54,900 nucleotides of DNA from a virus. Taxonomy: Duplodnaviria; Caudoviricetes. Each line of letters opens with the position of its first letter. The stretch's first letter is position 1. A program made the translations under genes and the position numbers. Below the pieces are notes generated by a model. The model saw only the letters and a program-made list of their open reading frames with translations. It was not told the DNA's origin and ran no database searches. Below are positions 10,367 to 46,240 of the stretch, piece by piece. Location: the IMG/VR virus record IMGVR_UViG_3300028897_000401, positions 1 to 54,900 of that record; one strand, 5' to 3'.

Positions 10367-10403
10367 AAGCATTTCAAATCATACCAAGAAAGGGGGAAGA
10401 ATA

Positions 10404-10826: not shown

Positions 10827-11011
10827 AGTTGACCTTTTTCGACGACGGCAATTCTCAAGTTGAAGCCCACGGCTATAGTGGTAAGGGCTGCAAGGCCGCG
10901 ACGGAAGAGATCGAAAAGTTGCTTGGCAAGTCCGGTTTTATGAAGAAGAAAAAGGAATATTTCAAAGGTCTAGTCAAGGGTGCGCAAACACGCTTAACAG
11001 CAAGGGGGTAG
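10811..11011 (+). CDS. DUF2997-family protein
   Basis: DDGNSQVEAHGYSGKGCKAATEEIEKLLG...KKEYF pattern. Confidence 0.75.
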   Translation: MAKEIELTFFDDGNSQVEAHGYSGKGCKAATEEIEKLLGKSGFMKKKKEYFKGLVKGAQTRLTARG

Positions 11012-14497: not shown

Positions 14498-14573
14498 GGT
14501 GTCGGTAGCTCAGTGGTTAGAGCATGTGGCTGTGGCCCATAAGACAACGGTTCGACTCCGTTCCGACACCCCA
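14498..14573 (+). tRNA. tRNA-His (GTG)
   Basis: Cloverleaf: G-1, acceptor GTGTCGG/CCGACAC, D-arm GCTC/GAGC, anticodon loop CT-GTG-GC, T-loop TTCGACT, C73 discriminator, encoded CCA. Confidence 0.95.
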
Positions 14574-17328: not shown

Positions 17329-17595
17329 ATGAAACATACACCAGGACCGTGGAAAGCCCACCAAGACCCATACGCTAAAATATGGTTAGTAGATATGGGG
17401 AACGAAAAATGGCGACAGTTTTACAAACAACAAACAATATTTACAGAAGGCAATGCCAAACTAATCGCAGCAGCACCGGAATTGTTGGAAGTCATACAAG
17501 ATTTTTTGGCAGCGAAAAATAAAGATGAAATGCACCACGCAATGGTACGTATGGAAGAAGCAATCGCCAAGGCAACACAAGGGGGGGAGAAATGA
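17329..17595 (+). CDS. conserved phage hypothetical protein
   Basis: MKHTPGPW...NAKLIAAAPELLE motif common in phages. Confidence 0.75.
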   Translation: MKHTPGPWKAHQDPYAKIWLVDMGNEKWRQFYKQQTIFTEGNAKLIAAAPELLEVIQDFLAAKNKDEMHHAMVRMEEAIAKATQGGEK

Positions 17596-17883
17596 ACAAG
17601 TACCTTGAAATGATGTACGAGAGAGCAGAAAGTAAAATGCTGGTCGGTATTTGCCCCTTCTGCGATGCCGACTCTGAAATGGAAAGTTGGGTTGTCGCTA
17701 ATTTTCAGGCTTGCAAGCCAGTAAATTATCCTTGCGCATGGGCTACTTGTATATTTTGTCCGCACGCCGAGTATGCGAATCTGCCCTTTATGATGGACGG
17801 GGATGGCGAAGTAACTATGGATGATACCGAAGAGGGTTGCACTATGGCCGGTAGGCGTGCGTGGCGCAAATACCGAGACTTTT

Positions 17884-19311
17884 TCAATGAAGAATCGGAA
17901 ACACCGTAATTTCACCCGTTCGCACGTCAATTTCCACCCGGTCTATGAGAATGGAGAGAATCCTTTTCATGGTAACCCGGTCGAAATTGGCGTTGCGGAT
18001 AGAGGTTACCTTGTCGGCGACTACTTCATGGTTGTAAATTTCCGCTTCCGCCTTTCTCAACTGTACGCCGGTGGCGTCCAGGCGTTGCGACAATTCACGC
18101 TTGGACTCTTCAAGTTCAAGGACTTTTTTCTTAATAAGATGCCTGTCCTTGGAATTGAAGAGGTCGAGAAGATTGTCTTGCTTAACTGAGAGGTCGTCTA
18201 TTTTGGATTCTAGAATTTCGTATTGCTCTACGAGTCGGCTCTTTCTGTGTTGGACGTGCTTTGATATGGCGGTGGCATTTATGTCGTGCGACCGGAAAAA
18301 TTCCAGGACGGCCTCTTCTAGCGGCTCGCGTTTGATGGATTTCCGGATGCATGTATCACAGTGGTCGTGGGAGCGTGTATGGAATTGACAACGGTATCGC
18401 GCAGTATCCCGGTCTTTGCGGTACTGACCCGCCCAGGAACTTCCGCAGGGTTTGGCGACGACAAGTCCGGACAAGAGAAACCTGTCATCGTCGTAAACCC
18501 TGGTGGCTGCGGTACGACCTTTGATGACGGTTTGCGTGCGTTCCCACACCTGGCGGTCGATTATGCCGATGTGATCCGACGGGAGTACCTCACCGCCATG
18601 CCTTTGAAAGCTGCGGTTTTCCCTGGCAGGATCGGCGATGTAATGGACGGATTTCAACATGCGCAAAATTTGCTGGTGGTTCCAGAGTTTCCCGCCGGTA
18701 GTTTTGATGCCTTGAGCATTGAGCCAATCTGCTATCTTGCGAGCGCCTTGATAGTTGAGGGCTCGGTTGTATATCTCTTTGACAATTTCCGCGTCTTTGT
18801 TGGGCTTGAGCCGTTTGTGCTCACGGTCGAGTTCAAAACCGAAAGAAACCCAGCCGCCCGTCCAGCGCTGCTTTTTGGCGAGCTTGTTCATGGCATCAGT
18901 AACCCGGAGCGAAATAACGTCGGATTCGTATTCGGCAAAAGAAACGAGCATAGTGCGGAACAGGCGTCCCATGGCGGTTTGTGTATCGACATTCTCTGTT
19001 ACCGATACTATGCCGACGCCGTTCTTTTCAAACTCTTCACTCAGAGACAAAAAATCTCTGACACGACGGGAAAAACGATCGAGCCGGTAGACGCATACTT
19101 TGTCTATACTGTTTTCGGAAACTACCCTTCGCAGGGCGTTGAGGCCGGGGCGAGACAGCGACCGCCCCGTTTTGCCTATATCAACAAAGGTGTTGGTAAG
19201 CTCCCATCCCTGGGATTTGATGTAATTCTCGGTGGCGTCCCTTTGTACTTCAGGGCTTACAGAAATATCGCCGCGTTCCTCGGATTGTCGGACGTAAACT
19301 GCGGTTTTCAT
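17884..19311 (-). CDS. large serine recombinase (integrase)
   Basis: YVRQS catalytic Ser, RPGL, VYRLDRFSR, recombinase domain, Zn-ribbon region and coiled coil. Confidence 0.95.
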   Translation of the reverse strand: MKTAVYVRQSEERGDISVSPEVQRDATENYIKSQGWELTNTFVDIGKTGRSLSRPGLNALRRVVSENSIDKVCVYRLDRFSRRVRDFLSLSEEFEKNGVGIVSVTENVDTQTAMGRLFRTMLVSFAEYESDVISLRVTDAMNKLAKKQRWTGGWVSFGFELDREHKRLKPNKDAEIVKEIYNRALNYQGARKIADWLNAQGIKTTGGKLWNHQQILRMLKSVHYIADPARENRSFQRHGGEVLPSDHIGIIDRQVWERTQTVIKGRTAATRVYDDDRFLLSGLVVAKPCGSSWAGQYRKDRDTARYRCQFHTRSHDHCDTCIRKSIKREPLEEAVLEFFRSHDINATAISKHVQHRKSRLVEQYEILESKIDDLSVKQDNLLDLFNSKDRHLIKKKVLELEESKRELSQRLDATGVQLRKAEAEIYNHEVVADKVTSIRNANFDRVTMKRILSILIDRVEIDVRTGEITVFPILH

Positions 19312-21924: not shown

Positions 21925-23169
21925 ATGAGTGATTTTAGAAGGAAGTTTACCTCTATAGAGGATAGGCCCACCGTGCCACGGTTGCCGAGGCTGGGCTATA
22001 TCCGCCTGGGGAAAAAGGTGCAGAAGCAAAACTACGATCCGGGCAAGTGCGTGATGAAAGACAAGCGCGGAAAGTGCCAGGGTTGCTGGAATTGTACCTA
22101 TCCAAAGGAGACTGATTACTTTGTCTGTCCAGACGTAATCCGATCCTATTACGGGGATACCCCGAATGAATTGCGGGTGATGTTACCCATAGACGACGAA
22201 CGGGTGTGCTTCACCAACTACTATGTCTATTACGGTATGTCCAGGGGTTGGAAGTGTATGGGCAACGGCAAAATTGCAGACAGGGTAAACCCGGAAACAG
22301 GAGAGATAAACGAAGTCACGTGTCCTGGCCCCGAAGCGTGCTCTTATCATTATGACAAGAAAGGAAATGCTCAATGTTCTCTTCAGGCCACACTGCAAGT
22401 GATAGTGCTGGATCACACGAATCATCCAATCGGCAACACATGGGGCGTGTATTGGGTAAGGACGACCTCTGAAACAAGCCGGATAGATATAATCTCAGGG
22501 ATGCGGTTCCTGCAAAAACTTGCCGGACGAATAGCATTGATTCCGCTCGTTTTGCGCAGAGTCGAAACAGTATTCCACAGGGATGGCAAGAGAGAGAAGC
22601 ATTGGACGCTGCAACTTATTCCAGTGGCCCCGGTGGATCAGTTGGCCTTTTACCGGGCCAACCCAAATCTGATTTACACCGGGCCGAATTATTGCCTACC
22701 AGAACCAGAAGTGATTCACCCAGCCACACAAGGCGATCCTGTAGTTATAGAAACAGACGACGTGAACGATGCCGAGTCTGACAAGTTTTGCGAAAAGTGT
22801 GGTCAGGCGTGGGCGGTACACAACGATGACGGGAGTTGTGTGGTGGACATAGGGGAAAATGTGGAAACGGGCCACGCAGAGAACTGCACCTGTGAAATTT
22901 GTATGGCAGACCACGACACTGCACCAAAAGAAACGCCAGAGGAAAACGGCGACCTCTATTCGCTATATGCCAAACTCCAACAAGAGATCGCCGACCTAGC
23001 CGGTGATCCCGACAAAACGGTTGATGATATTACAAAGTGGCAAAAGGAAAACGTACAGCGGATAAACAAACTCCCGGTAAAGTCTGACGATCAACTGAAC
23101 CAACCGGAACTACTCAAAGTTGTCAATGCGGCCAAAAGGAAAAAGAGAAATGCCGAACAGAATAATTAA
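21925..23169 (+). CDS. recombination protein (Gp3/RDF-like single-strand annealing family)
   Basis: PRLGYIRLGKK...YPKETDYF...GVYWVRTTS pattern; follows the exonuclease. Confidence 0.65.
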   Translation: MSDFRRKFTSIEDRPTVPRLPRLGYIRLGKKVQKQNYDPGKCVMKDKRGKCQGCWNCTYPKETDYFVCPDVIRSYYGDTPNELRVMLPIDDERVCFTNYYVYYGMSRGWKCMGNGKIADRVNPETGEINEVTCPGPEACSYHYDKKGNAQCSLQATLQVIVLDHTNHPIGNTWGVYWVRTTSETSRIDIISGMRFLQKLAGRIALIPLVLRRVETVFHRDGKREKHWTLQLIPVAPVDQLAFYRANPNLIYTGPNYCLPEPEVIHPATQGDPVVIETDDVNDAESDKFCEKCGQAWAVHNDDGSCVVDIGENVETGHAENCTCEICMADHDTAPKETPEENGDLYSLYAKLQQEIADLAGDPDKTVDDITKWQKENVQRINKLPVKSDDQLNQPELLKVVNAAKRKKRNAEQNN

Positions 23170-23983
23170 GGAGTCTGTCTGGACAAGCCCCAACCTGAAC
23201 AGACTTACCCTTGAGGCGGAGTTTTATTTCTACCGGATACTGCCACTACCAGATGACCACGGCTGCTTTGAGGCGACACCGCTAGTTGTCTTGGGTAAAT
23301 GCTTTCCGTTGAGGTTGGGGGAAATCACACCGGAACATATAGACAAATGGAATAAAGAGCTAGAAGGTGCTCAAATAGTGAGGTTTTGGCACGGTGAAGA
23401 CGGGCGGCTATATGGTAAGTTTTTGTCCTGGGAGGCCCACCAACGAATACGATCAAAACACATGAGAAGAACCCCAATGCCGCCATGGGAAGACAATGGG
23501 GAACGATTGCTACCACTCGGCGACGATTGCCAGCAAATGTCGTCAGATGACCGCCTTAATCCTAATCATAATCCTAATCATAATCCTAATCATAATCATA
23601 TTATTAGTGCGCCTGACGGCTGCACAAATTGTCCCGAAGAGTTTAGGAAAAGATGTAGGAAAAAAGGCGAATACCCTATTTGGGAGTGTAAAACCCCTGA
23701 AGCCAAGGAAGTTGTTAGTTACTTAAACGAAGTGGCAGGGAAAAGTTTCAAACACAGTTTTACCTCTCTTGAGCATCCGCGAGCACGCCTAAGAGAGGGT
23801 GCGACAGTGGCAGAATGTAAGACCGTTATAGATACCAAGCTCGCCGACGAATTTTTTGTGGACAATCCGAAATTTTTAGACCCGAAAACCCTTTTTCGCC
23901 CTAGCAACTTTGAGCGGTATCTTAACGAGAAACCGAAAAAGCCTATCCGGCAACCGGCGAAGGGCTACAAGGAGTTAAAATGA
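23150..23983 (+). CDS. phage replication initiator
   Basis: MPNRIIKES N-terminal domain; C-terminal YLNEVAGKSF...FLDPKTLFRPSNFERYLNE conserved phage domain. Confidence 0.8.
   Translation: MPNRIIKESVWTSPNLNRLTLEAEFYFYRILPLPDDHGCFEATPLVVLGKCFPLRLGEITPEHIDKWNKELEGAQIVRFWHGEDGRLYGKFLSWEAHQRIRSKHMRRTPMPPWEDNGERLLPLGDDCQQMSSDDRLNPNHNPNHNPNHNHIISAPDGCTNCPEEFRKRCRKKGEYPIWECKTPEAKEVVSYLNEVAGKSFKHSFTSLEHPRARLREGATVAECKTVIDTKLADEFFVDNPKFLDPKTLFRPSNFERYLNEKPKKPIRQPAKGYKELK
23557..23598. repeat. TAATCC/TAATCA hexamer tandem repeat inside initiator gene (possible origin)
   Basis: (TAATCCTAATCA)x3 + TAATCA, encoding NPNHNPNHNPNHNH. Confidence 0.6.
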
Positions 23984-24990
23984 TCTGGTTTATATTGGCA
24001 TACGTGGTGTTGATAGTCATGGTTTTTTGTCTGACCGTGCGGTTGGAGTGGACGCACAAAAGGAACAGGGATAACTATTAGCTGGCGGTCTGCCTGTGGC
24101 ACATAGGAGACATAAGAACTCCACACCGGGCGTTATTAGGCTAGTAGGAGAAATCCGAAAGCGAGTCCAACGGTGTAGCGGGCAGTGGGCATGGGAGTCG
24201 TCTGAAAGGTAACGTGGGGTAACATACGAACGACACCGCTGGTTTTTTGTTCATTTTTCGTGAACAGATATTTTTGTGAACAGGAAGGATAAAAAGGAGG
24301 TTTGGGGATGGCACAGATAGCGGATATGTTAGAAGAAATTCTAGTGACTGAATTACAGGAAACACCCGAACGTGCTAGGGAGCTTATCAAAAAATATCCA
24401 GAAATTGCTATGCAAGCTGCGATGACAGGACATTTTAGGGCGGTTGCCTTGGCGCTACAAATGGCAGACGGATAAAAACGTCACCACTTCCGAATAAGTG
24501 GGGGCAGTTTTTACCAATTGTTGATAAGTGCAGGGAGGTGGGGGATGGATAAAGAAAAGGCTATGCAGCAATGGGATGAAGCTAGAAATTATATTGCTAA
24601 TGGTGGTAGGGGCTCATGGCCCAGAGATATGTTTGAATCTTATCTTGATTACATCACGAAAATTGAGATGGAGCTGGAACGAGAAAAACAAAATGACATT
24701 ATCAAGAGTAAATTGCTGAACCATCTTGAAGCGGAGAATGAGAGGTTGAGGGGGGCATTGGGGAAGATAGCTAATTACAGCCCTTTCCATAGTGACATAC
24801 AGGGTTCAAGGGGTCTGGTGGAAATCGCCCGACAAGCATTAGATGACAATCAATCTAAGCAGGGCTAAGAAAATTAGCCACAAGTCAAGAAAAGGTCAAT
24901 ATTGAGAATATTAATTTACATTGCTTTGCTGCTAATTGCCATTAATTGGTATCTGGCGGTAGCAATTTATTGGTAGGGGGGGTGTGGACA

Positions 24991-26358
24991 TTGCAAACTG
25001 ACCGAATCCCACCACAAAACATAGACGCCGAGAGATCGTGTATTGCCGGGACGATAGCGCTAAATTTGCTGCCGAGCGAAATAGACTTAATGCCTGAAGA
25101 CTTTTACCGCTCCGGTCACGGCAAGATTTGGGGCGCTATCCGTTCGTTAGAACAAAAGGGTGAACCGATAGATTTGTTGTCGGTGGTGAACGAGTTGAAA
25201 ACCCGCAAGCACCTTGAGGATGCCGGAGGGGCTGCGTATCTTGCTGGCATGGGGGATGAAATAGGGTTTATCCCTTATACTGACGAACGTGTGAGTAATT
25301 ACGCACGAATCGTTAAGGACAAGGCTATAAAAAGAAGGTTGCTAGGGGTTTTGCGGGAAGGTGCTGTTAAGACTTACGAGGACGGCATGCCAGCCGAAGA
25401 TTTGTTGGGCCATGTTTTTGGGCGACTACTAGGATTAGACGCGAATCAAAACGGCAGCGGGCTCAGAAAGTTCAAAGATACCATGAAGGAAGCGGTTAAG
25501 CATGTCGAAAAGCTCTACCAGGGCGAAGAGTCGGAGGCGAGCATATTGTCTGGCTTTGCGAGGCTTGACAAGGTAACGTCCGGCTTTCAAAAAGGCGAGT
25601 ATATCTTGGTAGCTGGTAGGCCGAGTATGGGCAAAACGGCACTAGCACTCAAAGTTGCTTCTGCTGCATGTAAGCGCGGAAAGGTAGTGGATATTTTCAG
25701 TTTGGAAATGTCGAATTTACAGCTAGCCATGAGGGCGCTGGCCGACCGCACCAAAATCAATCTTATGAAAATACGCACCGGCAAACTAGAAGAGGCTGAT
25801 TGGCCGCGAGTCGTGATGGCAAGTAGCGAGTTGGCCGGATTAAAGTTGTGGACGGACGAAACCCCATACATTACGGTGGCCGAGATAGAGCGACGACTGA
25901 AAAGGAAACCCGAAGGAACGGACCTGGTGATAATCGACTACTTACAACTAATGAATCCGGGTGTGCGCACAGATTCCCAGGAATTAGCTACCGCACATAT
26001 CAGCCAGAGCTTGAAGAATATGGCAAAAAGACTTGACGTGCCCGTGATGGCGTTAAGCCAGTTGAACAGGGAATGCGAAAACCGGAGAGACAAAAGACCC
26101 CTGCTTTCGGATTTGAGATATAGCGGCAGTCTTGAGCAGGACGCAGACACCGTATTGTTGGTTTATCGGGACGAGAAATACTGCGAGGAATGCAGGGCTG
26201 GCCTGGAATGCCACAAAGGGCATGAAGGTATGGCAGAGATAATCATAGCAAAACAACGTAACGGGCCGACGGGTATGGTTCCCTTGGCTTTTCTGGCGGA
26301 TTCGGCATCTTTTGAGGCTATAGCCGAGGACGAGCCGGAGCCGCACTGGCAGGATTGA
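24991..26358 (+). CDS. dnaB: replicative DNA helicase
   Basis: PPQNIDAER, GRPSMGKT, IDYLQLM, LSQLNR, DLRYSGSLEQDAD and KQRNGPTG motifs. Confidence 0.95.
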   Translation: MQTDRIPPQNIDAERSCIAGTIALNLLPSEIDLMPEDFYRSGHGKIWGAIRSLEQKGEPIDLLSVVNELKTRKHLEDAGGAAYLAGMGDEIGFIPYTDERVSNYARIVKDKAIKRRLLGVLREGAVKTYEDGMPAEDLLGHVFGRLLGLDANQNGSGLRKFKDTMKEAVKHVEKLYQGEESEASILSGFARLDKVTSGFQKGEYILVAGRPSMGKTALALKVASAACKRGKVVDIFSLEMSNLQLAMRALADRTKINLMKIRTGKLEEADWPRVVMASSELAGLKLWTDETPYITVAEIERRLKRKPEGTDLVIIDYLQLMNPGVRTDSQELATAHISQSLKNMAKRLDVPVMALSQLNRECENRRDKRPLLSDLRYSGSLEQDADTVLLVYRDEKYCEECRAGLECHKGHEGMAEIIIAKQRNGPTGMVPLAFLADSASFEAIAEDEPEPHWQD

Positions 26359-27301
26359 TATGAAGCAAGAAGAAATACGAAAGGCGATAACGCATCTCGA
26401 CGCAGCGTTGAGCCTACTCAAGCACGTCGAGAAGGCCATAAAAAAGGGATTAGTAGTAATCCCCGACAATTCCGATCAGTTGGCGACGGCTTGGTACAAG
26501 GTGAATTGCTGCCGACTTTATACCGAAGACGAAGTAGCCATGGAAGACTGTAATCAATCGGCTATGGGTTTGATTTGTGATGCAAAGGAGATGCTGGATT
26601 CTTTGGTGGCCTGGAATATGGGGTTAACTAAACATGGTCAGGGAAACATATTAAGGGCGATGGCAATCGCTATGGAGAAAATTGAATTAGTCAAAAACGA
26701 GCTTGAGGTATGGCTCAACAACCGGGTGGCCGGAGAACTGAGTCAGTTGTTACCTTAACAAAAGGAGTCGGGGGATGGAAAAAAAATTATGTCCGATCAG
26801 TGAATTGCCGTGTGAAAAAGCGAAATGTGTGTGGTGGCAAGAGGGCGACTGTTCCGTGAATCATATCGCGGTTGCGCTGGCGGTGATCTCGGAAGAGTTG
26901 GTTGAGGTCCGGCGAAGGAGGTAAGCGATGGAAGAAAAGTTTTACTACTTGAGGGACAGGATGGGCAAACCGGTAATTACCGTGTGCTTACTCAAAGAGA
27001 ACGGTGTGGCGGCTCGCGGGATAGCGGTTTGCAGTGTGGATGACAATTTCTGCTACAAAATAGGCCGTGCCATAGCAAGGGGCCGGGCCCGATCCGCGCT
27101 GTTAAAGAACGTGGAAACGAGGGTTGGTTACGACAATTACTTCATGCCGATCCTACGGCAGAAAGCCATAAGGGCCGTGAACGAGGTAGCCTGGGAAGAG
27201 CTGAAGAAAACCGATATGCGACTGACTTACGATCTCGGCGAGTACGGGTACAAGGCCGTGAAGGCTCCGAAACTATCATCTTTTGAAACGGGGTTGTTTA
27301 A

Positions 27302-27694
27302 ATGAAAACCAGAGTCTATTTGGCTGGGCCCATAGCGGACTGCTCGGAAGCTGAAGCGGGCGAGTGGCGCAATAGAGTCGCGGCTTTGTTGGGGGATGGG
27401 TTTGAGTGTATAGACCCGTTTCGCAACGATTGGCGAGGTGTGGAAAAAGAGTTGTTTCGTGAAATAGTGGAATCGGACAAAAACGACATAAACGGCTGCG
27501 ACATACTGCTGGCCAATGTATGGAAGATCGGCGTCGGTACGTCTATGGAAATACTCTATGCCTGGGAGCGACACAAAGATGTTTACATTGTTGCGCCCGA
27601 CGGCAAGGTGTCGCCGTGGATTTCGTACCATAGCGCCAAGGTCTTTCCCAGCATAGAGGCTGCGGTTGATTTCATTAGATATTTTTATACCTAA
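27302..27694 (+). CDS. second nucleoside 2-deoxyribosyltransferase-family protein
   Basis: VYLAGPI, DKNDINGCD and GTSMEILYA motifs. Confidence 0.8.
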   Translation: MKTRVYLAGPIADCSEAEAGEWRNRVAALLGDGFECIDPFRNDWRGVEKELFREIVESDKNDINGCDILLANVWKIGVGTSMEILYAWERHKDVYIVAPDGKVSPWISYHSAKVFPSIEAAVDFIRYFYT

Positions 27695-27713
27695 CGAGAG
27701 GGGGTGATTAAAA

Positions 27714-28259
27714 GTGCGAGCATTGGGAATTGACCCAGGCTCAAAAACAGGCTGGGGAGTTGTCGAATCCACCAACGGCGAGAGGCGAGTTGTCCAGCAC
27801 GGTCTTTACAAGATACCGCGCAAAACCCTGGCAATAGGCGGAAGGCTGGTCAGAGAAGAACTGTTAAGAGTGGCCAGGGAATACGAGGTGGATGTTGTAT
27901 GCATTGAAGACTATGCGGATTGGTCGGCATCGCTGAGGGCTCGACAAAAGTTTCACGGCAGATGGAAAAAGTTTGACGGCAAAGACCCGACGCGGCGAGG
28001 TAATTGGCGTGCCACGTATGTTTCGGTACGTTTGGTCCAGGCAATTTCGGAATTGGAGCACCATTACAAGGTTGTATATGCGTACCCGATAGTCTGGCAA
28101 CACGCCGTTTGTGGGGTCGCCGGGGGGAAGGAAGCCTCTCGGTGGACAGTCAGACAAATCTTTGGGATTGAGCCTAAGACCGACCACGAATGCGATGCCA
28201 TACTGATAGGGTTGTATGCGCTGGACGTGGAGGTTTTGGGCAGAAAGGTAGCGGGCTGA
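27714..28259 (+). CDS. ruvC: RuvC-like Holliday junction resolvase
   Basis: LGIDPGSKTGWG, CIED and DHECDA acidic catalytic motifs. Confidence 0.8.
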   Translation: MRALGIDPGSKTGWGVVESTNGERRVVQHGLYKIPRKTLAIGGRLVREELLRVAREYEVDVVCIEDYADWSASLRARQKFHGRWKKFDGKDPTRRGNWRATYVSVRLVQAISELEHHYKVVYAYPIVWQHAVCGVAGGKEASRWTVRQIFGIEPKTDHECDAILIGLYALDVEVLGRKVAG

Positions 28260-28418
28260 TGGCATTACTTTACAAGTGCGATAGGTGCGGGGTGGTGGAA
28301 CACAGGGGGGCGGCGAACGTAGTGGAGATACGTTTTATAGACTCCCTAAATCCCTTGCGCAGCTACCACGTTTGCTATCCGTGCAGGACGAAAGTCATTC
28401 AATTTATGGAGACAGAAG

Positions 28419-28721
28419 ATGACGTACTACAATACAACCGGGGAGGCGGGGGCTGTCCTAGGGGCGAGCCAGAGACAGGCGGAGAGTCAAGAGGAAAAAA
28501 TCCTGTGCTTTTTTAAAAAGTACCCGGACAAGGCTTTCACGCCGTATGCAGTGCAGCGGTACTTGCGGGCCAAGTGGCCGATTACGAGTATCAGAAGGGC
28601 GATGACAAATCTGACCAACGAGGGGAAGTTGGAAAAACTGAAGGTTCTTCGGCAGGAGAAGTATGGGAAGTCGAACCATATATGGACCCTAGCCGACAAG
28701 GATCAAATGGCGTTACTGTAA
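28419..28721 (+). CDS. winged-helix phage protein
   Basis: PITSIRRAMTNLTNEGKL motif. Confidence 0.6.
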   Translation: MTYYNTTGEAGAVLGASQRQAESQEEKILCFFKKYPDKAFTPYAVQRYLRAKWPITSIRRAMTNLTNEGKLEKLKVLRQEKYGKSNHIWTLADKDQMALL

Positions 28722-28924
28722 CGAGTGTGCGCAAGCACGACAGGGGAGAAGTCGATGCCTTGGGATTCACACAACCGAACCAAAATGAGCGAGTTGGCTT
28801 ACAAGGTTTTGATTTACGAGAGGGCATTAGAGCTTATCGTCAAGCTCTCTGTGCATAGATCAGAATATTATCGAAAAAGAATTTTGGCGATAGCCAAAGA
28901 AGCACTGCAAAAGGGGGAAAACAA

Positions 28925-29806
28925 ATGAATCATCCAAGTAGGGAAACCATCAAAATGTTGATGAACACTGCCTACGGTTTCCAGCAACTACGGATAATGA
29001 CCGGGAACCGTCTGGCGGCAAACTTCCGCATCAAGCTCGGCGTTGCGCCGGGCATGAAGAAATCCGAAATACCGGAAGCGGCCAAGAACATCTTGGATAC
29101 GTTGTTGGCGGATCAGTTCAGATTGGCAGACGCTCTGGCATCCGGCGGCAGAAAGCGTTTCAAGGCGCGGCTCAGCGACGACGGTATTATCAGCGACGAA
29201 TTTGAGTATGAAGCCATCGGTCATTACATGACCTTGCTGCAAGCAGAGCAAGACGCCTTTAAGGCGGTGGGGCGTGCGGTTCGGCAGCACCCTTTGTGGA
29301 CGGGTTTTTTCAAGGACGTGCGCGGCGTCGGAGAAACTATGGCGGCGGTGTGCATCAGCGAATTTGACGTTCACGTAGCCAAACACGTATCGGCATTTTG
29401 GAAGTATGCGGGCCTGGACGTGGCGGACGACGGCAGGGGGCGATCCAGAAGAAAAGAGCACCTTATCGAAGTGGAGTATATCGACAAAAACGGTGAGAAG
29501 AAAATCCGTAAGTCGATTACGTTCAATGCCTGGCTGAAATCGAAGCTTATGGGTGTGCTGGCAGATTGTCTGCTAGTCAAAGGGAAGTACCGGACGATTT
29601 ATGACAACTACAAGCACCGGCTTGAGCATCACGAAAAACACGAAGAGAAAACGAAGGCGCATCGCCATCTCATGGCAAAGCGATACATGGTCAAGCAATT
29701 CCTGCGTGACCTGTGGGTTGCATGGCGCGAGTTGGAAGGTCTGCGAATAGACGAGCCGTATCATGTTGCTAAGCTGGGGATGGCGGAGCATAGCGAGGCG
29801 GCATAA
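28925..29806 (+). CDS. tasA: TasA-like Nop-domain protein (IS110/IS116 C-terminal-like, no nuclease domain)
   Basis: Coiled-coil N-terminus (QQLRIMTGNR), VRGVGETMAA helix-hairpin, SAFWKYAGL, FNAWLK and HRHLMAKRYMVKQFLRDLW. No DEDD RuvC or HNH domain; TIGR-like array present in the same genome. Confidence 0.8.
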   Translation: MNHPSRETIKMLMNTAYGFQQLRIMTGNRLAANFRIKLGVAPGMKKSEIPEAAKNILDTLLADQFRLADALASGGRKRFKARLSDDGIISDEFEYEAIGHYMTLLQAEQDAFKAVGRAVRQHPLWTGFFKDVRGVGETMAAVCISEFDVHVAKHVSAFWKYAGLDVADDGRGRSRRKEHLIEVEYIDKNGEKKIRKSITFNAWLKSKLMGVLADCLLVKGKYRTIYDNYKHRLEHHEKHEEKTKAHRHLMAKRYMVKQFLRDLWVAWRELEGLRIDEPYHVAKLGMAEHSEAA

Positions 29807-30390
29807 TGAAAACCAAAAAATGCCGACAGTGCGGCAAGAGAAAGAAAATAACCAGATTTACCCTCAACGGCGGGCGTCTTACCTCTGTTTGTCAGGCGTG
29901 TTCCGAAAAGAACGCTACGGCCTGTCCGAAATGTGGTCGTAGCGTAGTGTCGGACATGAAAGCCCTAAAAGAGTTTCGCGCCAAAAGCAAGGAAGTTACG
30001 GCATTAAAAAAGGAAGTGCGCGACAAAAATAGGCGGATAACCTTTCTTGAGTGGCGAACGGGTATCGACACAACCAAGGTTGAGTTGACTAAGGAAATAG
30101 ACAAGCTCCGGGTAGAAAATAAGCGATTGGAACGTAGCGCCGATAGGGGGCGGGCAAACAAGGTGCGATTTCTTGAGCGAGCCAACGATGTCTTGAAAAA
30201 GATGCTCACCGAGGCGGAGGCACGGGTGGAAAAGATGGAAAAATGCCGGAGGCATTGTCTGATGTGCGGGCAAGAGTTTCTGGCAGACGATCCAAAGACA
30301 AACCGGCGTTGCCCCAGGTGTGAGGCGAGCGTGAAGAACAGCAACGTGGATTTCTCGTTTTTTGATAGCTGCGAAGTTCACTTGAAATGA
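29806..30390 (+). CDS. Zn-finger/coiled-coil hypothetical protein
   Basis: Several CxxC pairs; translationally coupled to the TasA-like gene. Confidence 0.55.
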   Translation: MKTKKCRQCGKRKKITRFTLNGGRLTSVCQACSEKNATACPKCGRSVVSDMKALKEFRAKSKEVTALKKEVRDKNRRITFLEWRTGIDTTKVELTKEIDKLRVENKRLERSADRGRANKVRFLERANDVLKKMLTEAEARVEKMEKCRRHCLMCGQEFLADDPKTNRRCPRCEASVKNSNVDFSFFDSCEVHLK

Positions 30391-39524: not shown

Positions 39525-40866
39525 AAAGATTTTGATTTTAAATAATTACGAGTATTTGAACTTTCTCAACGCCGATTCAAGCTATACGCTAACAAAGAGC
39601 TTTATTAACGAAGCCCTGGCTGCCGATGAACACCTTAGCATTAAATGGGTATTGCCGTCTAATAGCACCTTGTCCTGGGAGCCCGATCTCGACCATGAAC
39701 GGCTAGAGATTATCAAATGTCCTTACCTGAAAAGTAGGGATGCCAACGAAATAGTGCCACAATGGTTTGACGCCGTGAATCCTTTTTTCGGTCGACATTG
39801 CGATTATCATTTAGTGATATGTAACAATGCTGGACTAGCACTTAGAATGACAGAGCTTTTGCAGTTTATCCATAATCCGATCCCAGTAATTATATGGGAG
39901 TTTTACACAAAAACTTTAGGTAGGGGGGCTTGGTCGCAGCAAAATGTGGCAAATGTGCAGATGCACGCTTTAGCTCATGCACTTGCAGAGGTGACATGGT
40001 ATCAGAGTGAATGGGAAATGAAAAATGCTGTGAGGATGGCGCAAAAATTTCTGTCACCTAAATTGCAAGACCGAGTGATAGAGACAGGAAGGGCAGTTAC
40101 CATAGCGTGTAACACGAAAGCGTTAGATGCGATTAAGACGACTAAACCCAAAAAGCCCACCCTGTATTTTGGAGGCAGATTTACCAAATTAAAGGCTGGA
40201 GAGGTTGCTGTTCAAGTCTACGATTACCTGTATAAGCTGGGTTTTAATATAGATATAGAAATTACTGTGCCACACAAAAAGGTGCGGCGGTTGGAAACTG
40301 TGGAACTTGGTAAAGATGAACTGAGGATTCATAAAGGATTGCTGCAAAGTGAGGCGTGGGAAGTTATGAAAAGCTGTACTCATTCGATATATCCCGGCGC
40401 CCAGATAAATTCGTTACCTGGAGCTTTTTTTGAGCAAGTTTATTCTGGCTTGGTTGTTTTTGCGCAAAAGAAGAATAGCGAAATGGTATTACCATCGAAT
40501 TATCCTTACTTGTTTACGACTATTGACGAGGCGGTGTTGGGGCTGAAAAAATGCCTGGAATCTAACGAAAAAGCCGATCCGTGCTGGGCAAAAATGGCAG
40601 AGGACAAATTTGGAGTGTGCGTAAACACGCAATCGATGCTCAAAGATATTGATATGGCGAGTAAAAAATCTATGCCTAGAAAGAGCGGCAAGTATGCCAA
40701 GGAATTGAAGGAGCGCGGTTTCGATTCCTGGGCTATTTGCTATGAGTGGCTACTGCGGAATAAGCCGATAGTCAAAGCGACTAAAAGATATGTGCTTACT
40801 CAAGGGACGAGGGTCAACTTAAATGAGGTCTTCAGGGAATGGTCCCAGTTAACGACATTATCCTAA
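39517..40866 (+). CDS. GT-B fold glycosyltransferase (putative)
   Basis: LYFGGRFTKLK and PGAFFEQVYSG pattern of GT-B C-terminal domains; sugar-pathway context. Confidence 0.6.
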   Translation: MRKKILILNNYEYLNFLNADSSYTLTKSFINEALAADEHLSIKWVLPSNSTLSWEPDLDHERLEIIKCPYLKSRDANEIVPQWFDAVNPFFGRHCDYHLVICNNAGLALRMTELLQFIHNPIPVIIWEFYTKTLGRGAWSQQNVANVQMHALAHALAEVTWYQSEWEMKNAVRMAQKFLSPKLQDRVIETGRAVTIACNTKALDAIKTTKPKKPTLYFGGRFTKLKAGEVAVQVYDYLYKLGFNIDIEITVPHKKVRRLETVELGKDELRIHKGLLQSEAWEVMKSCTHSIYPGAQINSLPGAFFEQVYSGLVVFAQKKNSEMVLPSNYPYLFTTIDEAVLGLKKCLESNEKADPCWAKMAEDKFGVCVNTQSMLKDIDMASKKSMPRKSGKYAKELKERGFDSWAICYEWLLRNKPIVKATKRYVLTQGTRVNLNEVFREWSQLTTLS

Positions 40867-41951
40867 AGGAAAAAGAGCGAGAGTATGTCCTCGACTGCCT
40901 GGATCGGCACTGGATAGGTGTTGGCGGTGAAATGGTTCAGGCGTTTGAAAGTAAGTTTCCGAGCGCACTCAAGTATAGGCTCGCAGTAAACAGCGGTACG
41001 GCTGCATTGCAACTGGCGTTGTTGGGGTTGGGGGTAGGCGAGAATGACTATGTAGTTATCCCAGCGTACTCTTGCGGAGCAACGATAGCGACTGTAAAGC
41101 AAGTCGGCGCTGTTCCGCTGATTTGCGACATAGAAAAAGATACGTTGGGGATGAACTGGCTTTGGCTGAAATACGCCATAAAGAAATACGGCTCCAGAAT
41201 CAAGGCTGTGCAGCTTGTGCATGTGTACGGACAACCAGCAAAAGGGACGCTGGAGATTGTCAAGGCGTGTCGGGAAAATGACATTAAATTAATAATGGAC
41301 AGCTCGGAAGCTCACGGGGCGATGATTGGCACGCAGTTGTTGGATGGCTGGGCTGATGTTTCGGCGTACAGTTGTCGGGCGGAAAAGATGATCGGCGTTG
41401 GTGAAGGCGGGATCGTTTGCAGCAATGACAAAGACGTGATTGAGCGGTGTAAATTTTGGGCGTCGAGATGTAAGCCAAACCCGAAGGTGCCCTATTGGTA
41501 TACGGAATCCGGGTTTAATTACTTAATGACGGAAATTCCGGCTGCAATCGGCCTTGCACAAATCGAACGACTTTTCCAGAAGATTGCACACAGAAAGAAG
41601 ATTCGGGAGCGCTACAAGCAAGAACTGAAAGAGCTGTTTTGGTTTCCAGAAGTTGACGAAATTGGGTCGGCAAAGGTTCGTTCCGCTTACTGGCTTCATG
41701 CAGGATTGGCAAACAGAGATGCAGTAAAACTTGCAATGTCAGATATGGCTGCACATTTAAGAGATAGGGGTTTTGGCACAAGGCCAGCTTTTTATCCTCT
41801 GCACTGGCTGCCGATAGAACATAAGACTGTTGGCGGGATGAATGTTGCGCCAGGGGTGTTCAGCGATCTTCTAATTTTTCCGTCTGGTGAAACCATGACA
41901 GAGGAAATTGTTTATGACGTTGCGATGGCGGTTAAGGAGTTGCTTTTATGA
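40839..41951 (+). CDS. DegT/DnrJ/EryC1/StrS PLP-dependent sugar aminotransferase
   Basis: NSGTAAL, VHVYGQP, DSSEAHGA, KMIGVGEGG and GFNY motifs. Confidence 0.9.
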   Translation: MVPVNDIILKEKEREYVLDCLDRHWIGVGGEMVQAFESKFPSALKYRLAVNSGTAALQLALLGLGVGENDYVVIPAYSCGATIATVKQVGAVPLICDIEKDTLGMNWLWLKYAIKKYGSRIKAVQLVHVYGQPAKGTLEIVKACRENDIKLIMDSSEAHGAMIGTQLLDGWADVSAYSCRAEKMIGVGEGGIVCSNDKDVIERCKFWASRCKPNPKVPYWYTESGFNYLMTEIPAAIGLAQIERLFQKIAHRKKIRERYKQELKELFWFPEVDEIGSAKVRSAYWLHAGLANRDAVKLAMSDMAAHLRDRGFGTRPAFYPLHWLPIEHKTVGGMNVAPGVFSDLLIFPSGETMTEEIVYDVAMAVKELLL

Positions 41952-42334
41952 TTGGCGCTAAGGAAGTTAGTATGTCACTGAATGTGTCTACTGTCAAAGA
42001 CGGGCGTGGTGGTATTTTTACCTTCTTACCCAAAGAGCCAATAGTTGAAATAAATCTAGTGGTAATCAAAGCCGGTCATTTTAGGGGTGAGCATTACCAT
42101 AAGGAGTTTGTCGAATATTTCTTGATAGTGTCGGGTTTGGGACTCTATGTGACAAAGGACGAAAAGGGTAATCGTGTTCAGAAAGTGGTTTCCGGTGGCG
42201 AGATGTTTCGTGTCGAGAAGGGAACACCCCATGTCGTCTATGCTATTGAAAATATGAGGTGTATCTCTGCATTGTCGAAAAAATGGGATGATTGTGACGA
42301 ACCGATTACTTACACAGGGGAGGAAGATATTTGA
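41948..42334 (+). CDS. cupin sugar isomerase/epimerase (WxcM/FdtA-like)
   Basis: DGRG, RGEHYH..E and PH cupin motifs. Confidence 0.75.
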   Translation: MIGAKEVSMSLNVSTVKDGRGGIFTFLPKEPIVEINLVVIKAGHFRGEHYHKEFVEYFLIVSGLGLYVTKDEKGNRVQKVVSGGEMFRVEKGTPHVVYAIENMRCISALSKKWDDCDEPITYTGEEDI

Positions 42335-43161
42335 TACGAATAGAGGCTGTGGGTAAGTCGAAAGTGTTTGAGACACGGTTTAAGCCTGCCGCCTTAGAAT
42401 CGAAAGAATTTGTAATCTGTGGGGCAGACTCGCAAGCGGTTTATATTTCAACGCCACCCAGCACGCATGCCGCTTTTGTTATGAAAGCCCTAAAGAGTGG
42501 TAAGCACGTATTGTGTGAAAAGCCCGCTTTTTTGGACGAGGCTTCGGCCAGGGCGGCAGTAAGGCTTGCAGATGAACGCGAGCTAGTTTTAATTGAAAGT
42601 TGGCCGTACACCTTTCACGACCAATGGCGATGGCTTAAGGAGAAAATCCAGAACAAGTTTTTTTATTGTGACGTAGCGTTTGGGGTGCCGATTATTCCAG
42701 TTGGGTGGAGAGAGGTGCCGCGAGAACTTGGAGCGATTGGAGATTTTGCTGTATATGCAATTTCGGTTGCCCTGGAAATGGGCGACCTGCCTGTCGAGAC
42801 TGTTGTCGTCGAAGGCCAATCTCGTAATGGAGTACCCTTTTATCTGGCTGGGACAATTACCACGGCGAAGCAATCCATCGTTTCTTTTCGGGTTGGTTAT
42901 GGTTTGCAGTTTGTTAGTCGATTGCTTGTTTGGGGAACCGATTTTGAAATCGAACTAGAGAAGGCTTTTAATCCAAGAGCAGAAGAAGTTGTTAGGGTGA
43001 GAGAAAGCGTGAATTACTTAACGACGTACCGGAGCTTCCAAAATGACCATTGGTGTCGAATGCTCTCAAAGTTTAGGCGGATGGTGGTAGAGCGTCAAAC
43101 CAAAGACAACTACAAGGTGATTGAACAGGCTAAAGTGTTAGAAAAATTGAAAAAAAAATGA
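42331..43161 (+). CDS. Gfo/Idh/MocA-family oxidoreductase
   Basis: AVYISTPPSTH, GKHVLCEKP and GAIGDFAVY motifs. Confidence 0.85.
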   Translation: MIRIEAVGKSKVFETRFKPAALESKEFVICGADSQAVYISTPPSTHAAFVMKALKSGKHVLCEKPAFLDEASARAAVRLADERELVLIESWPYTFHDQWRWLKEKIQNKFFYCDVAFGVPIIPVGWREVPRELGAIGDFAVYAISVALEMGDLPVETVVVEGQSRNGVPFYLAGTITTAKQSIVSFRVGYGLQFVSRLLVWGTDFEIELEKAFNPRAEEVVRVRESVNYLTTYRSFQNDHWCRMLSKFRRMVVERQTKDNYKVIEQAKVLEKLKKK

Positions 43162-43448
43162 AAAAAATCTAGTTTACTTTTACTAAACTTTTAGTTTAAC
43201 GAGTGTATAGGGGCGATTTTAAAGCCCTTTTTTTGTTTTTTGGGTGGCTTATTGATAAGGATCGACAACAAGCGAGACAAAACGAGTTTTTAGAGAGGCA
43301 TTTTGGCTAAACGCCCTATTCATAAGTATCTACAGGATGACGTATAGCCACGCTATTGAGCGAAAAAGAATCGACCCTTACCTTACTATTCGGGCTTTTT
43401 AGGGCTTTATTGCTAAGTAGTCGCAATAACAAGGAAAAACGAAGATTT

Positions 43449-43464
43449 AGGCATACTTTTTGCT
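43449..43464 (+). promoter_or_regulatory. sigma54 (-24/-12) promoter for the packaging/late operon
   Basis: AGGCATACTTTTTGCT with GG-N10-GC spacing, intergenic, upstream of ParB/terminase. Confidence 0.6.
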
Positions 43465-43582
43465 ATGCGCAGTGGCCCCTACAAAATAGAGGAAGAAATC
43501 GAGTTTAGAGATTGCGCCAAATGCGGCGAAAAATACGGTCGAGTTATATGGAGCGCAGAAAAACTTTGCTACAGGTGTTGGG

Positions 43583-44317
43583 ATGAAACCAGAAGAGAAA
43601 GTCAGTCCTGAAACATGGATTGAGTTGGAGAAGATTCACCCGAACGAATGGAACCCAAACGAGCAAGACGAGGTTACGTTCAATCAGTTGGTGAAAACGA
43701 TTTCGGAGGAAGGGTTTGACCAGCCGATCGTTGTTCACCAGAGGGGCGAGGACGATTACGTCATTATCAAGGGTGAGCACAGGTGGAGAGTTGCGCGGGT
43801 ACTTGGTTACGACAAGGTGCCCTGTAAAATCCGACATGATTGGGACGAGGCCGAGCAGAAACTTCAAACCGTGAGAGACAACATGCTGCGGGGCGAAGTG
43901 AACCGAGCCAAGTTTACCAAATTGGTCAACGAGATTCAGAAAAAGTACGGACTTGACCATGAGGCCCAGGCGGGATTGATGGGCTTTAAAGATATGGAGG
44001 AATTTTACAAAAACTACCTCATAGAGAAGGAGCGACGCAGCAAGGAACTCTTGGACGACCTGGCGGCAGTGAAGGACGAGCTGCGAACCCTGGACAACCT
44101 GTCAACCGTGATACGGGAGATTTTTACCAACCACCGCGAAGAGGTTGAGCTGAACTTTGCATATTTCATGTTCGGCAGGAAAAAGGTGTTAATGGTTGAG
44201 ATGGACAAAGACCTCAAAGACCAAATCGAACGCGTGGTTGATTTTAGCAAAGGAAGGAAGGTGAACATCAACCTCGTCCTGTCGAGAGTCATAGCAGACG
44301 GGATGAAGGGGATGTGA
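43583..44317 (+). CDS. ParB/Srx N-terminal domain protein
   Basis: PNEWNPN, GFDQPIVV and IIKGEHRWRV motifs. Confidence 0.85.
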   Translation: MKPEEKVSPETWIELEKIHPNEWNPNEQDEVTFNQLVKTISEEGFDQPIVVHQRGEDDYVIIKGEHRWRVARVLGYDKVPCKIRHDWDEAEQKLQTVRDNMLRGEVNRAKFTKLVNEIQKKYGLDHEAQAGLMGFKDMEEFYKNYLIEKERRSKELLDDLAAVKDELRTLDNLSTVIREIFTNHREEVELNFAYFMFGRKKVLMVEMDKDLKDQIERVVDFSKGRKVNINLVLSRVIADGMKGM

Positions 44318-44803: not shown

Positions 44804-46240
44804 ATGGCAAACGACACAATGAAGCTGTTCGACGACTACTGGCCGCATCCCCATCAGTACCGTGTGCATACGTGTGGAAAGCGATTCGTCTACGTCATGG
44901 CCGGAAGGCGTGGCGGTAAAACCAAGTGTGGGGCACGAGAATTTCTCAGGCGCATTTTTAAGAAATACCGCAAGATAGCGCATCTGCCGTACAAAGCCAA
45001 ATACGAGATCGCCGGTGGTGCGCCGCGAATAAAACCACGCTTACATTACTGGGCAGTCGCTCCGGATTACAGTCTATCAAAGGTGCAACAAAGGGAGCTT
45101 TTTGACGTCTTGCCCCCTGAGCAGATAGCCAAGTGGAAAGCCTCAGACAAAGAGTTGTGGTTAAAGGGCGACATTCTGATTGAGTTTAAAAGTGCGCAGA
45201 ATCCTGACTCGCTGGTCGCGGTTGGCTTGAATGGAATGTGGGTTGACGAGGTGGCGCGGCTGAGGCCGACGGCATGGAGCGGCAATCTAAGGCCGTGCCT
45301 TTCCGATACGGGTGGCTGGGCCATATTTACAACAACACCACTTGGAAAGAACTGGAGCTACGAAGAGATTTATCGGCTGGGAAACCCGAAAGATGCGTTA
45401 TACGAGCCGGAGTATGCCAATATCACCTGGAGAACAGTCGACAATATACGGGTTCCACTTCTTGCTGATGAAGTTGAAAAAGCCAAAAAGACGATGCCGC
45501 TCAAATATTTCATGCGTGAGTATGAGGCGTCGCTAGAGATATTTGCCGGGCAAGTTTATGACAACTGGGAGCCTTACGTTCATAAGGTAGGCGAAAACAA
45601 CAAGCATGGCATCGTGCGGCCACCTAGGCGGTTTGATAGGTTGATTTGCGGTGTCGATTGGGGATACGCAAACCCCGGCTGTCTTATTTTGTTTGGCGTC
45701 AAAGACACGAAACTGAGGGATATAGGTGGAAACAGAATCCCGAAGTTTTGGGCGCTGAGAGAGATTTACAAAAAACGGCTTCCGGTGGTCAGTCCCGATC
45801 CCGACGCTGATAGTTGGGTGAAGGAAGCAAAAAATCTTAACGCCTATTGCATGAGAAAGTACGGAAAAGCCGTAGAGGCTTTCTATTGCGACCCCAGCGA
45901 GCCAGCATACATAGACTATTTTCTTGAAGCGGACTTACCGGCGCAACCCGCGAACAATGCCGTCGGGCCGGGCATACAAACCGTATCGACGCTGATGGAG
46001 CCATACAGTGCCACGGGTACACCGTGGCTTTTTTATGTTGAGGATTCAAACGACGACTATTACGGTTGCGAGAACCTCATAGAACAGAAGGGCTCGTACA
46101 GGTTTAAGGAAGACAAGGAAGAGCCGGTTAAAGAAAACGACCACGCCGTCGATGCAGAGAGATATGCTCTGCATACCTATGTGGAAGAGTATGGCATCGA
46201 AATCAGAGTCATTGATATTCCGCGCAAGCAAGCGGCCTGA
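44804..46240 (+). CDS. terL: terminase large subunit
   Basis: AGRRGGKT Walker A, WVDE Walker B, TTP, GVDWG and C-terminal DHAVDAERY nuclease motifs. Confidence 0.95.
   Translation: MANDTMKLFDDYWPHPHQYRVHTCGKRFVYVMAGRRGGKTKCGAREFLRRIFKKYRKIAHLPYKAKYEIAGGAPRIKPRLHYWAVAPDYSLSKVQQRELFDVLPPEQIAKWKASDKELWLKGDILIEFKSAQNPDSLVAVGLNGMWVDEVARLRPTAWSGNLRPCLSDTGGWAIFTTTPLGKNWSYEEIYRLGNPKDALYEPEYANITWRTVDNIRVPLLADEVEKAKKTMPLKYFMREYEASLEIFAGQVYDNWEPYVHKVGENNKHGIVRPPRRFDRLICGVDWGYANPGCLILFGVKDTKLRDIGGNRIPKFWALREIYKKRLPVVSPDPDADSWVKEAKNLNAYCMRKYGKAVEAFYCDPSEPAYIDYFLEADLPAQPANNAVGPGIQTVSTLMEPYSATGTPWLFYVEDSNDDYYGCENLIEQKGSYRFKEDKEEPVKENDHAVDAERYALHTYVEEYGIEIRVIDIPRKQAA

Follow-up and report, generated by a model that had tools for sequence, protein, structure and literature searches.

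The IMG/VR virus record IMGVR_UViG_3300028897_000401 is a linear virus contig of 54.9 kb from a tailed marine phage, the whole length of which (positions 1 to 54,900) was analysed here and is referred to as the window; nearly all of its genes are carried on the (+) strand. The window probably encodes a canonical dual-repeat TIGR-TasA system, the two parts of which are not adjacent. The gene, tasA, encodes an intact nuclease-less TasA with an RNA-binding domain of the Nop/IS110 type, and the array of guide units lies well downstream of it, with 5,688 nt between the tasA stop (29806) and the first array base (35494). The original prediction for this stretch, made from its sequence alone, had described a nuclease-less, TasA-like Nop-domain protein situated in the replication module at 5.7 kb from its array. 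The protein families, fold comparison and distance reported here bear this out, and the neighbours of tasA include genes for DnaB (from 24946), a deoxyribosyltransferase-like protein (27302) and a RuvC-like protein (27714). The two parts of the system are as follows.

28925-29806, (+) strand: tasA, ATG start, 293 aa, nuclease-less TIGR-associated protein
35494-36481, (+) strand: dual-repeat TIGR array, 27 units of 36 nt, from a sequence parse and a period-36 signal

The TasA protein and the TIGR array

Based on Pfam, residues 130-204 of the protein match PF02371 (the IS116/IS110/IS902 C-terminal domain) with 24.8 bits, above the cut-off of 21.3. The only other match at E ≤ 10 was a sub-threshold one to DUF3368, and RuvC, HNH and PF01548 gave no match to the protein at this level. 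PHROG 4285, which bears the label 'transposase', covers the full length of TasA (E 3.5e-35). When the PDB was searched by sequence (phmmer), only TasR (9MTY, chain 9mty_A; E 1.9e-11) and, at E 3e-6, the TasH of 9W03/21KL were found, and a family profile of 30 sequences matched the same two proteins with E-values of 9.2e-25 and 8.5e-18, respectively.

An AlphaFold2 (AF2) model built from the alignment (mean pLDDT 86.1, pTM 0.80) comprises long helices at residues 6-37, 52-85 and 92-121, followed by a C-terminal domain that is rich in helices and has a single beta hairpin; a beta-rich N-terminal domain is absent from it. It represents a monomer fold, and its N-terminal helices align with the Tas coiled-coil in the Foldseek matches. 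The comparison with Nop5, IS110 and TasA structures, which had been proposed as a check, gave TasH and TasR as the closest folds: they made up all of the ten best chains in the PDB (E 1e-7 to 1.1e-5), followed by the IS621/IS110/ISCro4 recombinases at E 6e-3 (IS621) to 1e-2, with archaeal Nop5/Nop56 and Prp31 appearing only at E ~1. At 293 aa, TasA compares with chains of 331 aa (TasR) and 354 aa (TasH). Since a Nop-type domain is combined with the lack of a nuclease, the protein is a TasA by the definition of that family in Faure 2025 (PMC12045711) and, judged by sequence and model, it is an intact one.

The C-terminus of the protein reads P-Y-H-V-A-K-L-G-M-A-E-H. In the 30-sequence alignment (A1), Y279 is invariant and H289 is kept in at least 90% of the rows, and TasA, itself one of the 30, has all the invariant columns. 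In the profile alignment Y279 is matched to Y289 of SpTasH, which together with H296 forms the tigRNA-processing dyad of dual-repeat systems according to Xu et al. 2026 (bioRxiv 10.64898/2026.09.09.750476). A word-indexed search of ~5.8 billion protein clusters yielded 858 homologues at E ≤ 0.001; among the 120 listed, most were ~280-310 aa long and the best had ~50% identity. Among isolated phages (a collection of 50,697 records) homologues were confined to the Ralstonia jumbo phage phiRSL1 (13219-14178, 35% identity, labelled 'transposase' in RefSeq) and the Microcystis phage Mvi-JY20 (31% identity). No second Tas-like ORF (open reading frame) was found in any frame of the window, the best other match having an E-value of 1.8.

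In the array, 27 loop repeats (consensus AGACAACC) alternate with 26 full edge repeats (consensus AGCGTGCC), each unit being made up of an edge repeat, ~10 variable nt, a loop repeat and again ~10 variable nt. It starts on an edge repeat that is 5'-truncated (..AGCC, 35498-35501) and ends with a 3'-truncated one (AGCG, 36475-36478). The variable gap following the 8-nt repeat measures 10 nt in 47 of the 54 half-units, 11 nt in six and 13 nt in one. Repeat positions 1-2 (AG) are nearly fixed (A in 53/53, G in 49/53), as are positions 7-8 (C in 47/53 and 53/53); a purine stands at position 9 in 44/53 (edge 22/26, loop 22/27), and the later positions are close to uninformative. In the terms of the published descriptions, box D is AG, followed by a 4-nt gap, box C is CC-purine, and the spacer has 9 nt; both boxes are common to the edge and loop repeats. 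The consensus gap of the edge repeats is CGTG, with complementary ends (position 3 is C and position 6 is G, each in 22/26), and that of the loop repeats is ACAA, being A-rich. A complementary-ended gap in the edge repeat and an A-rich one in the loop repeat are the features by which the TIGRFinder methods tell the two apart, and the traits of the array fit both the description in Faure 2025 (PMC12045711) and the TIGRFinder model. Chains of AG-N4-CC (at least three, spaced at 17-19 nt) were found in the window only at 35512-36463, and in none of 20 shuffles.

No Rfam family was matched at the array, the sole Rfam match in the window being a tRNA at 14499. Four of the 27 tigRNA units were folded singly, and none gave a stable structure (z −1.8 to +0.7); complementarity between spacers A and B was no higher within a unit (mean 2.8) than between units (mean 2.7).

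The repeats of the array are of the type found beside relatives of TasA. The arrays abutting 17 such relatives share this type and have AG and CCA boxes; their edge repeats resemble AGCGAGCCA, in the pattern AG(C/A)GAG(C/T)CA, and their loop repeats resemble AGAAAACCA or AGACAACCA, in the pattern AGA(A/C)AACCA. A spurious ORF translated from the window array also cross-matches these arrays (E 1e-6 to 1e-10). As the record holds one tas gene and one array, the simplest reading is that the two are cognate.

Separation of gene and array

The tasA start overlaps the stop codon of the ORF before it, and the following ORF has its ATG at 29806, directly against the tasA stop. The stretch from 29806 to the array and its immediate surroundings contain the following features.

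29806-35499, (+) strand: ~15 tightly packed ORFs on the same strand (ORF list, Pfam, PHROGs)
32111-32140, (+) strand: best-scoring sigma-70-like site of the tasA-array interval (TTGACA-18-TATTAT, 11/12, with TG), a consensus match only
32493-32771, (+) strand: DUF968/HNH-like protein, the sole clear family in the intervening stretch
32761-32988, (+) strand: weak zinc-finger match (Pfam)
35263-35499, (+) strand: Cys-rich ORF of 78 aa, no family match (Pfam, PHROGs)
36483-36713, (+) strand: zinc-ribbon-like ORF of 76 aa (zf-ChsH2, E 1.4e-4, below the Pfam cut-off)

The remaining intervening ORFs have no known family in Pfam or PHROGs, and DUF968 is the only intervening gene with homologues in the relatives' loci described below. 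An inserted mobile element was considered as the cause of the split and found no support: no transposase or integrase family was found among the intervening ORFs (Pfam, PHROGs), and a repeat search of 28400-36900 revealed no convincing terminal repeats. Within that searched interval, this agrees with the original prediction, by which the gene has no insertion sequence (IS) ends. The repeat pairs that do flank the interval (22 nt at 77% and 18 nt at 83%) are at chance level. An AG-N4-CC chain search of the window detected no array remnant next to tasA. Separately, the 20-mer at 33852-33871, at the start of the ORF 33837-34085, matches array unit 21 in 18 of 20 positions on the same strand, spanning the end of spacer A, the loop repeat and the start of spacer B; the match may be due to chance (such a seed has a probability of ~0.1 by our estimate).

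The array is wedged between two small ORFs without intergenic space. The stop codon of the Cys-rich ORF (35497-35499) falls inside the first, truncated edge repeat, and the ATG of the zinc-ribbon-like ORF lies one base past the last truncated edge repeat. We infer that the array is co-transcribed with its flanking genes; as far as its sequence goes, the promoter-like site at 32111-32140 could be the start of a separate transcription unit containing the array. Such promoter-like sites are not enriched in the window (19 vs 15.9 ± 3.8 in shuffles), nor are terminator-like sites (25 vs 16.6 ± 3.8). The terminator-like site nearest to the array (36529-36545) has a weak T-run and lies inside the ORF 36483-36713.

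The rarity of the split was assessed on 114 loci of relatives, the flanks of the gene being included to a maximum of 10 kb per side: 82 were from IMG/VR, nine from metagenome contigs and 23 from GTDB genomes. The nine came from a metagenome scan with TasA, in which none exceeded 61% identity, and an IMG/VR search with the neighbours 29806-30390 and 34832-35263 produced no loci that could be used. Arrays were detected by autocorrelation at periods 35 to 37 (a match fraction no lower than 0.44 over 180 nt that also exceeded those of periods 30/33/39/42 by 0.10 or more), shuffled sequence reaching at most 0.41. One short fragment without a gene match was dropped, leaving 113 scored loci (90 viral or metagenomic and 23 from genomes); several are near-duplicates, and the counts are of loci, not lineages.

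Co-occurrence of array and gene in related phages had been proposed as a check, and an array was present within ~410 nt of tasA in 98 of the 113 loci. Among the 90 viral and metagenomic loci, 80 have the array at less than 300 nt, often overlapping the gene end, two at 300-1000 nt, and one has its sole array more than 3 kb off; seven are without an array, and five of these end within ~270 nt of the gene on one side. In the 23 genome loci the array lies within ~410 nt in 18 and at ~1 kb in one, and none was detected in four. Array-less or more distantly split systems may be represented by five TasA relatives without a detectable period-36 array (L044, with 10 kb on each side, L073, L094, L096 and L106).

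The only other locus of the 113 with a split layout (L058) is an IMG/VR contig on which tasA occupies 9916-10899 and an array of ~22 units lies at ~17569-18377, ~6.7 kb downstream, with minus-strand ORFs between the two and a T-run after the array. Another relative, L003, shares the order DnaB, tasA, DUF968, ParB and portal with the window at 27-52% identity, and its array abuts tasA on the upstream side; the position of the array therefore differs between distantly syntenic phages. The separation of tasA and array is a rare layout variant, and a mechanistically undemanding one.

Metagenomic assemblies contain the same arrangement. Logan contigs of four metagenome runs include the stretch from tasA to the array: one of 9,182 nt (run X1) covers 28900-36210 with two differences, another of 5,959 nt (X2) covers 29549-35507, and in a third run (X3) a contig of 2,287 nt covers 33924-36210 and smaller pieces tile most of the rest, with gaps. 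As X1 and X2 are possibly source runs of the record, they are not independent of it. The split layout is not an obvious chimera.

The same assemblies revealed variation in the array. In the assembly graphs of X1 and X2, two forms of 36181-36286 are present. One is that of the window (depth 8.8 and 6.7), and the second is longer by 36 nt (depth 6.4 in X1 and 3.8 in X2, roughly 40% of the local depth), its extra letters including a loop-repeat motif and several spacer letters being changed. X2 also contains a form in which exactly 36 nt are missing (35528 to 35565; depth 2.9). Of the eight single-letter differences listed over 7.8 kb, five are in the 1-kb array, and four of those five are linked on one contig. 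These one-unit alleles suggest that natural populations gain or lose guide units. Within the window array itself, six pairs of A spacers share at least 7 of 10 letters (mean 1.2, maximum 5, in 200 shuffles), and the A spacers of units 15 and 17 differ by one letter, which hints at duplication of units followed by divergence. Alleles and spacer likeness fit unit gain and loss and duplication-divergence; the mechanism is not thereby shown.

Predicted function and alternative explanations

By homology, the TasA of the window should act as a guide-processing, non-cutting binder of DNA sites of ~18 bp. The array would be transcribed within a long (+)-strand transcript, and a TasA dimer would bind box D (AG) and box C (CC-purine) of each unit. 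The Tyr/His loop at the C-terminus would then cut within the edge repeats, releasing 36-nt tigRNAs of the predicted form UG-CCR-N9-AG-ACAA-CCR-N9-AG-CG. The ribonucleoprotein (RNP) would pair its two ~9-nt spacers with opposite strands of an ~18-bp DNA site and, being nuclease-free, would block transcription or replication of the bound DNA, possibly genes of the host or of the phage itself, or a competing mobile element. In this scheme TasA would act in trans, on an RNA transcribed at another place in the genome. No new mechanism is required to account for the separation, because any diffusible RNA-binding protein can act in trans, and the occurrence of a second split locus (L058) makes trans operation plausible.

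Related activities have been reported for members of the family. The dual-repeat protein FpTasA has been co-purified with array RNAs of 36 nt (Faure 2025, PMC12045711), and MbTasA mediates guide-dependent, reversible repression of reporters and shifts target DNA (Xu et al. 2026, bioRxiv 10.64898/2026.09.09.750476). PlTasA is described as a dimer that unwinds its target and pairs each spacer with one strand (bioRxiv 10.64898/2026.08.11.744272), and FpTasA-VPR turns on a reporter in human cells (2026 preprints). The proposal that the window protein is an RNA-guided DNA binder thus holds by homology only, and its novelty does not stand, this being the published function of the family.

Composite 18-mers built from each of the 27 units were used to search for targets on both strands, with either half-site geometry and with the array masked. 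In the window, three-mismatch matches numbered four in geometry 1 and one in geometry 2, against ~0.9 and 1.0 in 50 spacer shuffles, and are not counted as a signal. According to Xu et al. 2026, natural TIGR targets are mostly undeterminable.

Several observations weigh against a working, cognate TIGR-TasA system at this locus. With the record ~58% complete, a second tas gene or array is possible in the missing 42%. The array is more degenerate than most of the relatives' arrays: its peak period-36 identity is 0.59, vs 0.54-0.77 in 16 of the 17 relatives listed and 0.49 in L058, and seven of the 54 half-units exceed the usual spacing of 18 nt by 1 or 3 nt. No convincing rho-independent terminator was found 3' of the array, and the fold of 36470-36580 has a z of +0.79 relative to shuffles. 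The conserved His of TasA stands 3 residues further from KLG than that of SpTasH, and the equivalence of the two is uncertain. Expression, processing and binding at the window locus are predictions from the family, and the repression experiments of the 2026 preprints were carried out with a TasA of the stem-loop and not the dual-repeat type. The target search gave no self-target in the window at up to two mismatches; in 91 relatives' loci (1.11 Mb) it gave five two-mismatch matches, all of geometry 2, which represent two independent sites where ~2.5 were expected by our own estimate.

One extension of the proposed mechanism deserves mention, unlikely as we consider it. Cutting of the edge repeats by TasA would also sever the polycistronic message, which would make TasA, while it generates its guides, a timed post-transcriptional switch for the genes that follow the array. 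The array starts in the stop codon of one ORF and ends one base before the ATG of another, without a terminator, and tasA belongs to the upstream replication module. If true, the alleles with 36 nt gained or lost would represent live guide turnover in a natural phage population.

Another possible explanation, which we regard as improbable, is that the system is decaying, a rearrangement having parted the gene from its array and left the latter as a non-functional relic in an operon. The comparative degeneracy of the array, its units of irregular length, its lack of a promoter or terminator of its own and the rarity of the separation among relatives would all agree with decay. However, the tasA gene is intact and its product has lost none of the residues that are invariant in the alignment, the box positions are near invariant (A1 in 53/53, C8 in 53/53), the natural alleles differ by exactly 36 nt and so preserve the register, and an independent locus, L058, retains ~22 units at 6.7 kb from its gene.

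It is very improbable, in our view, that the array is served by another Tas protein encoded outside the record, the gene at 28925 being an orphan or using other guides. The incomplete record (~58%, CheckV) leaves room for such a protein, 11 of the 113 relatives' loci have no array in the DNA examined (among them L044, with 10 kb on each side), and Xu et al. 2026 mention a branch without detectable arrays. Nevertheless, the repeat type of the window is the one found beside the genes of this TasA clade, the 54.9 kb hold no second Tas-like ORF (best E 1.8), and most of the array-less loci end close to the gene.

The original prediction had also named possible trans partners, by which TasA would be a targeting module recruiting the RuvC-like protein at 27714, the DUF968/HNH-like protein at 32493 or the ParB-like protein at 43583. 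All three are encoded in the window, tasA is found in operons with the parB-like tasParB (Faure 2025, PMC12045711), and the distantly syntenic L003 has DUF968 and ParB 2.6-3.2 kb after tasA. This part of the prediction found no support in the comparison with the relatives and is highly improbable: homologues of the three occur near tasA in 0, 3 and 3 of the 114 loci, respectively, ParB stands beside the terminase genes 13.8 kb away from tasA, and the RuvC-like protein fits ordinary phage families of Holliday-junction resolvases.

Finally, the gene could be taken for what is left of an IS110-family transposase, for which the PF02371 match (Transposase_20 in Pfam) and the 'transposase' labels of PHROG 4285 and the RefSeq homologue in phiRSL1 would speak. 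This view is effectively refuted by the lack of an N-terminal DEDD/RuvC domain (no PF01548 match at E ≤ 10, the N-terminal half being helical), by a fold search in which Tas chains are 4-5 orders of magnitude ahead of IS621, by the TIGR arrays beside 98 of 113 relatives' genes and by the position of the gene within an operon whose stop and start codons overlap.

Gene content, significance and comparison with known systems

The CheckV estimate of completeness already given applies to a window that includes, beyond tasA, the array and their surroundings, the following annotated features.

4572-4955: nucleoside 2-deoxyribosyltransferase-like gene, the first of two (Pfam)
14499-14573: tRNA-His (GTG)
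23557-23600: perfect 12-nt tandem repeat TAATCCTAATCA, 3.4 copies, within the ORF 23120-23983 (Phg_2220_C domain)
24946-26358: DnaB helicase (Pfam/PHROGs)
27302-27694: nucleoside 2-deoxyribosyltransferase-like gene, the second of two (Pfam)
27714-28259: RuvC-like resolvase, of ordinary phage Holliday-junction resolvase families (PHROGs/Pfam)
38562-43161: sugar-nucleotide modification cluster, between the array and the packaging genes (Pfam)
43583-44317: ParB-like gene, adjoining the terminase genes (Pfam)
44804-46240: large terminase (Pfam/PHROGs)
46553-49468: portal protein fused to a Mu F-like head morphogenesis domain and a DUF3626-like tail, 971 aa (Pfam)
52105-54900: RCC1-repeat ORF of more than 932 aa with an open 3' end (PF00415, 12 stretches, E 2.4e-147)

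The two deoxyribosyltransferase-like genes may point to nucleotide or DNA-base metabolism. The sugar-nucleotide cluster includes genes for an NAD-dependent epimerase/dehydratase, a DegT-type aminotransferase, a cupin and a GFO/IDH/MocA oxidoreductase. A 150-nt tandem repeat at 53110-54793 is explained by the RCC1 repeats of which the ORF 52105-54900 is built. A megablast of window positions 24000-44000 against the 50,697 phage records gave no match, and among the sequencing runs listed for the phage there were no RNA datasets.

The family, the array type and nuclease-free binding and repression are already in print, and the locus adds no new principle. It offers a natural example of a tasA and an array that need not be linked. 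The original prediction held that the split could be missed by searches based on adjacency, and this is correct in part. In Xu et al. 2026, flanks of up to 10 kb per side were extracted for the Tas genes of the tree, with a median recovered length of 5,374 bp; given these lengths, a gap of 5.7 kb stays within the flank on long contigs and is lost on short ones. The same preprint counts 6,685 arrays for 20,096 tas loci, most of which are on short contigs. A catalogue that checked only beside the gene, or that used contigs shorter than ~6 kb, would call this phage array-less. How TIGR arrays change is called unknown in both Faure 2025 (PMC12045711) and Xu et al. 2026, and the one-unit alleles in near-identical populations provide a small lead on this question. 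What is left is modest: a rare layout variant and a small population-genetic lead on array turnover.

Among known systems, IS110/IS621 elements share with TasA the PF02371 RNA-binding C-terminal domain and a distant fold match (E ~6e-3); the TasA of the window has no DEDD catalytic domain, bridge RNA or IS ends and is not a member of that family. The tasParB-tasA operon (Faure 2025, PMC12045711) also differs, since the sole ParB-like gene of the window lies 13.8 kb downstream of tasA. The best matches of TasA are SpTasH (PDB 9W03, 21KL) and TaTasR (9MTY), which combine a coiled-coil with a Nop C-terminal domain, as TasA with its coiled-coil-type N-terminal helices probably does; unlike them, TasA has no HNH or RuvC domain, and identities in the fold alignments are 19-24%. 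SpTasH and TasA both have the C-terminal motif P-Y-x-x-x-K-L-G, with the His directly after KLG in SpTasH and the conserved His of TasA 3 residues later. MbTasA and PlTasA are nuclease-less as well, and their RNA-guided DNA binding and repression are the function proposed for the TasA of the window; these two use stem-loop tigRNAs and have no Tyr/His loop, whereas the window TasA is of the dual-repeat type.

L058 is the only counterpart in layout. Its TasA is 46% identical to that of the window, its edge repeat is similar (AGCGCGCC) and its tasA is also downstream of DnaB. By contrast, its intervening genes are unrelated and partly on the opposite strand, and its array is followed by a T-run; beyond DnaB and TasA there is no sign of kinship between the two phages.

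The closest published system is FpTIGR of Flavonifractor plautii (Faure 2025, PMC12045711), with which the window shares a solo nuclease-less Nop-domain Tas in a phage context. Arrays of the FpTIGR type resemble that of the window in having 36-nt units, alternating edge and loop repeats, spacers of ~9 nt and truncated edge repeats at both ends, and in the covariation of box C and box D between edge and loop repeats. The box D of the window is AG and its box C is CC-purine, vs UG and CCA in the TasR consensus given in that paper, the AG and CCA boxes being common to the whole TasA clade of the window; its 27 units compare with the 5-15 that are most common in Faure 2025 (PMC12045711). Published arrays are typically, though not obligatorily, followed by a terminator, unlike that of the window, and whereas arrays of the FpTIGR type lie directly upstream or downstream of the gene, the array of the window is 5.7 kb away from it.

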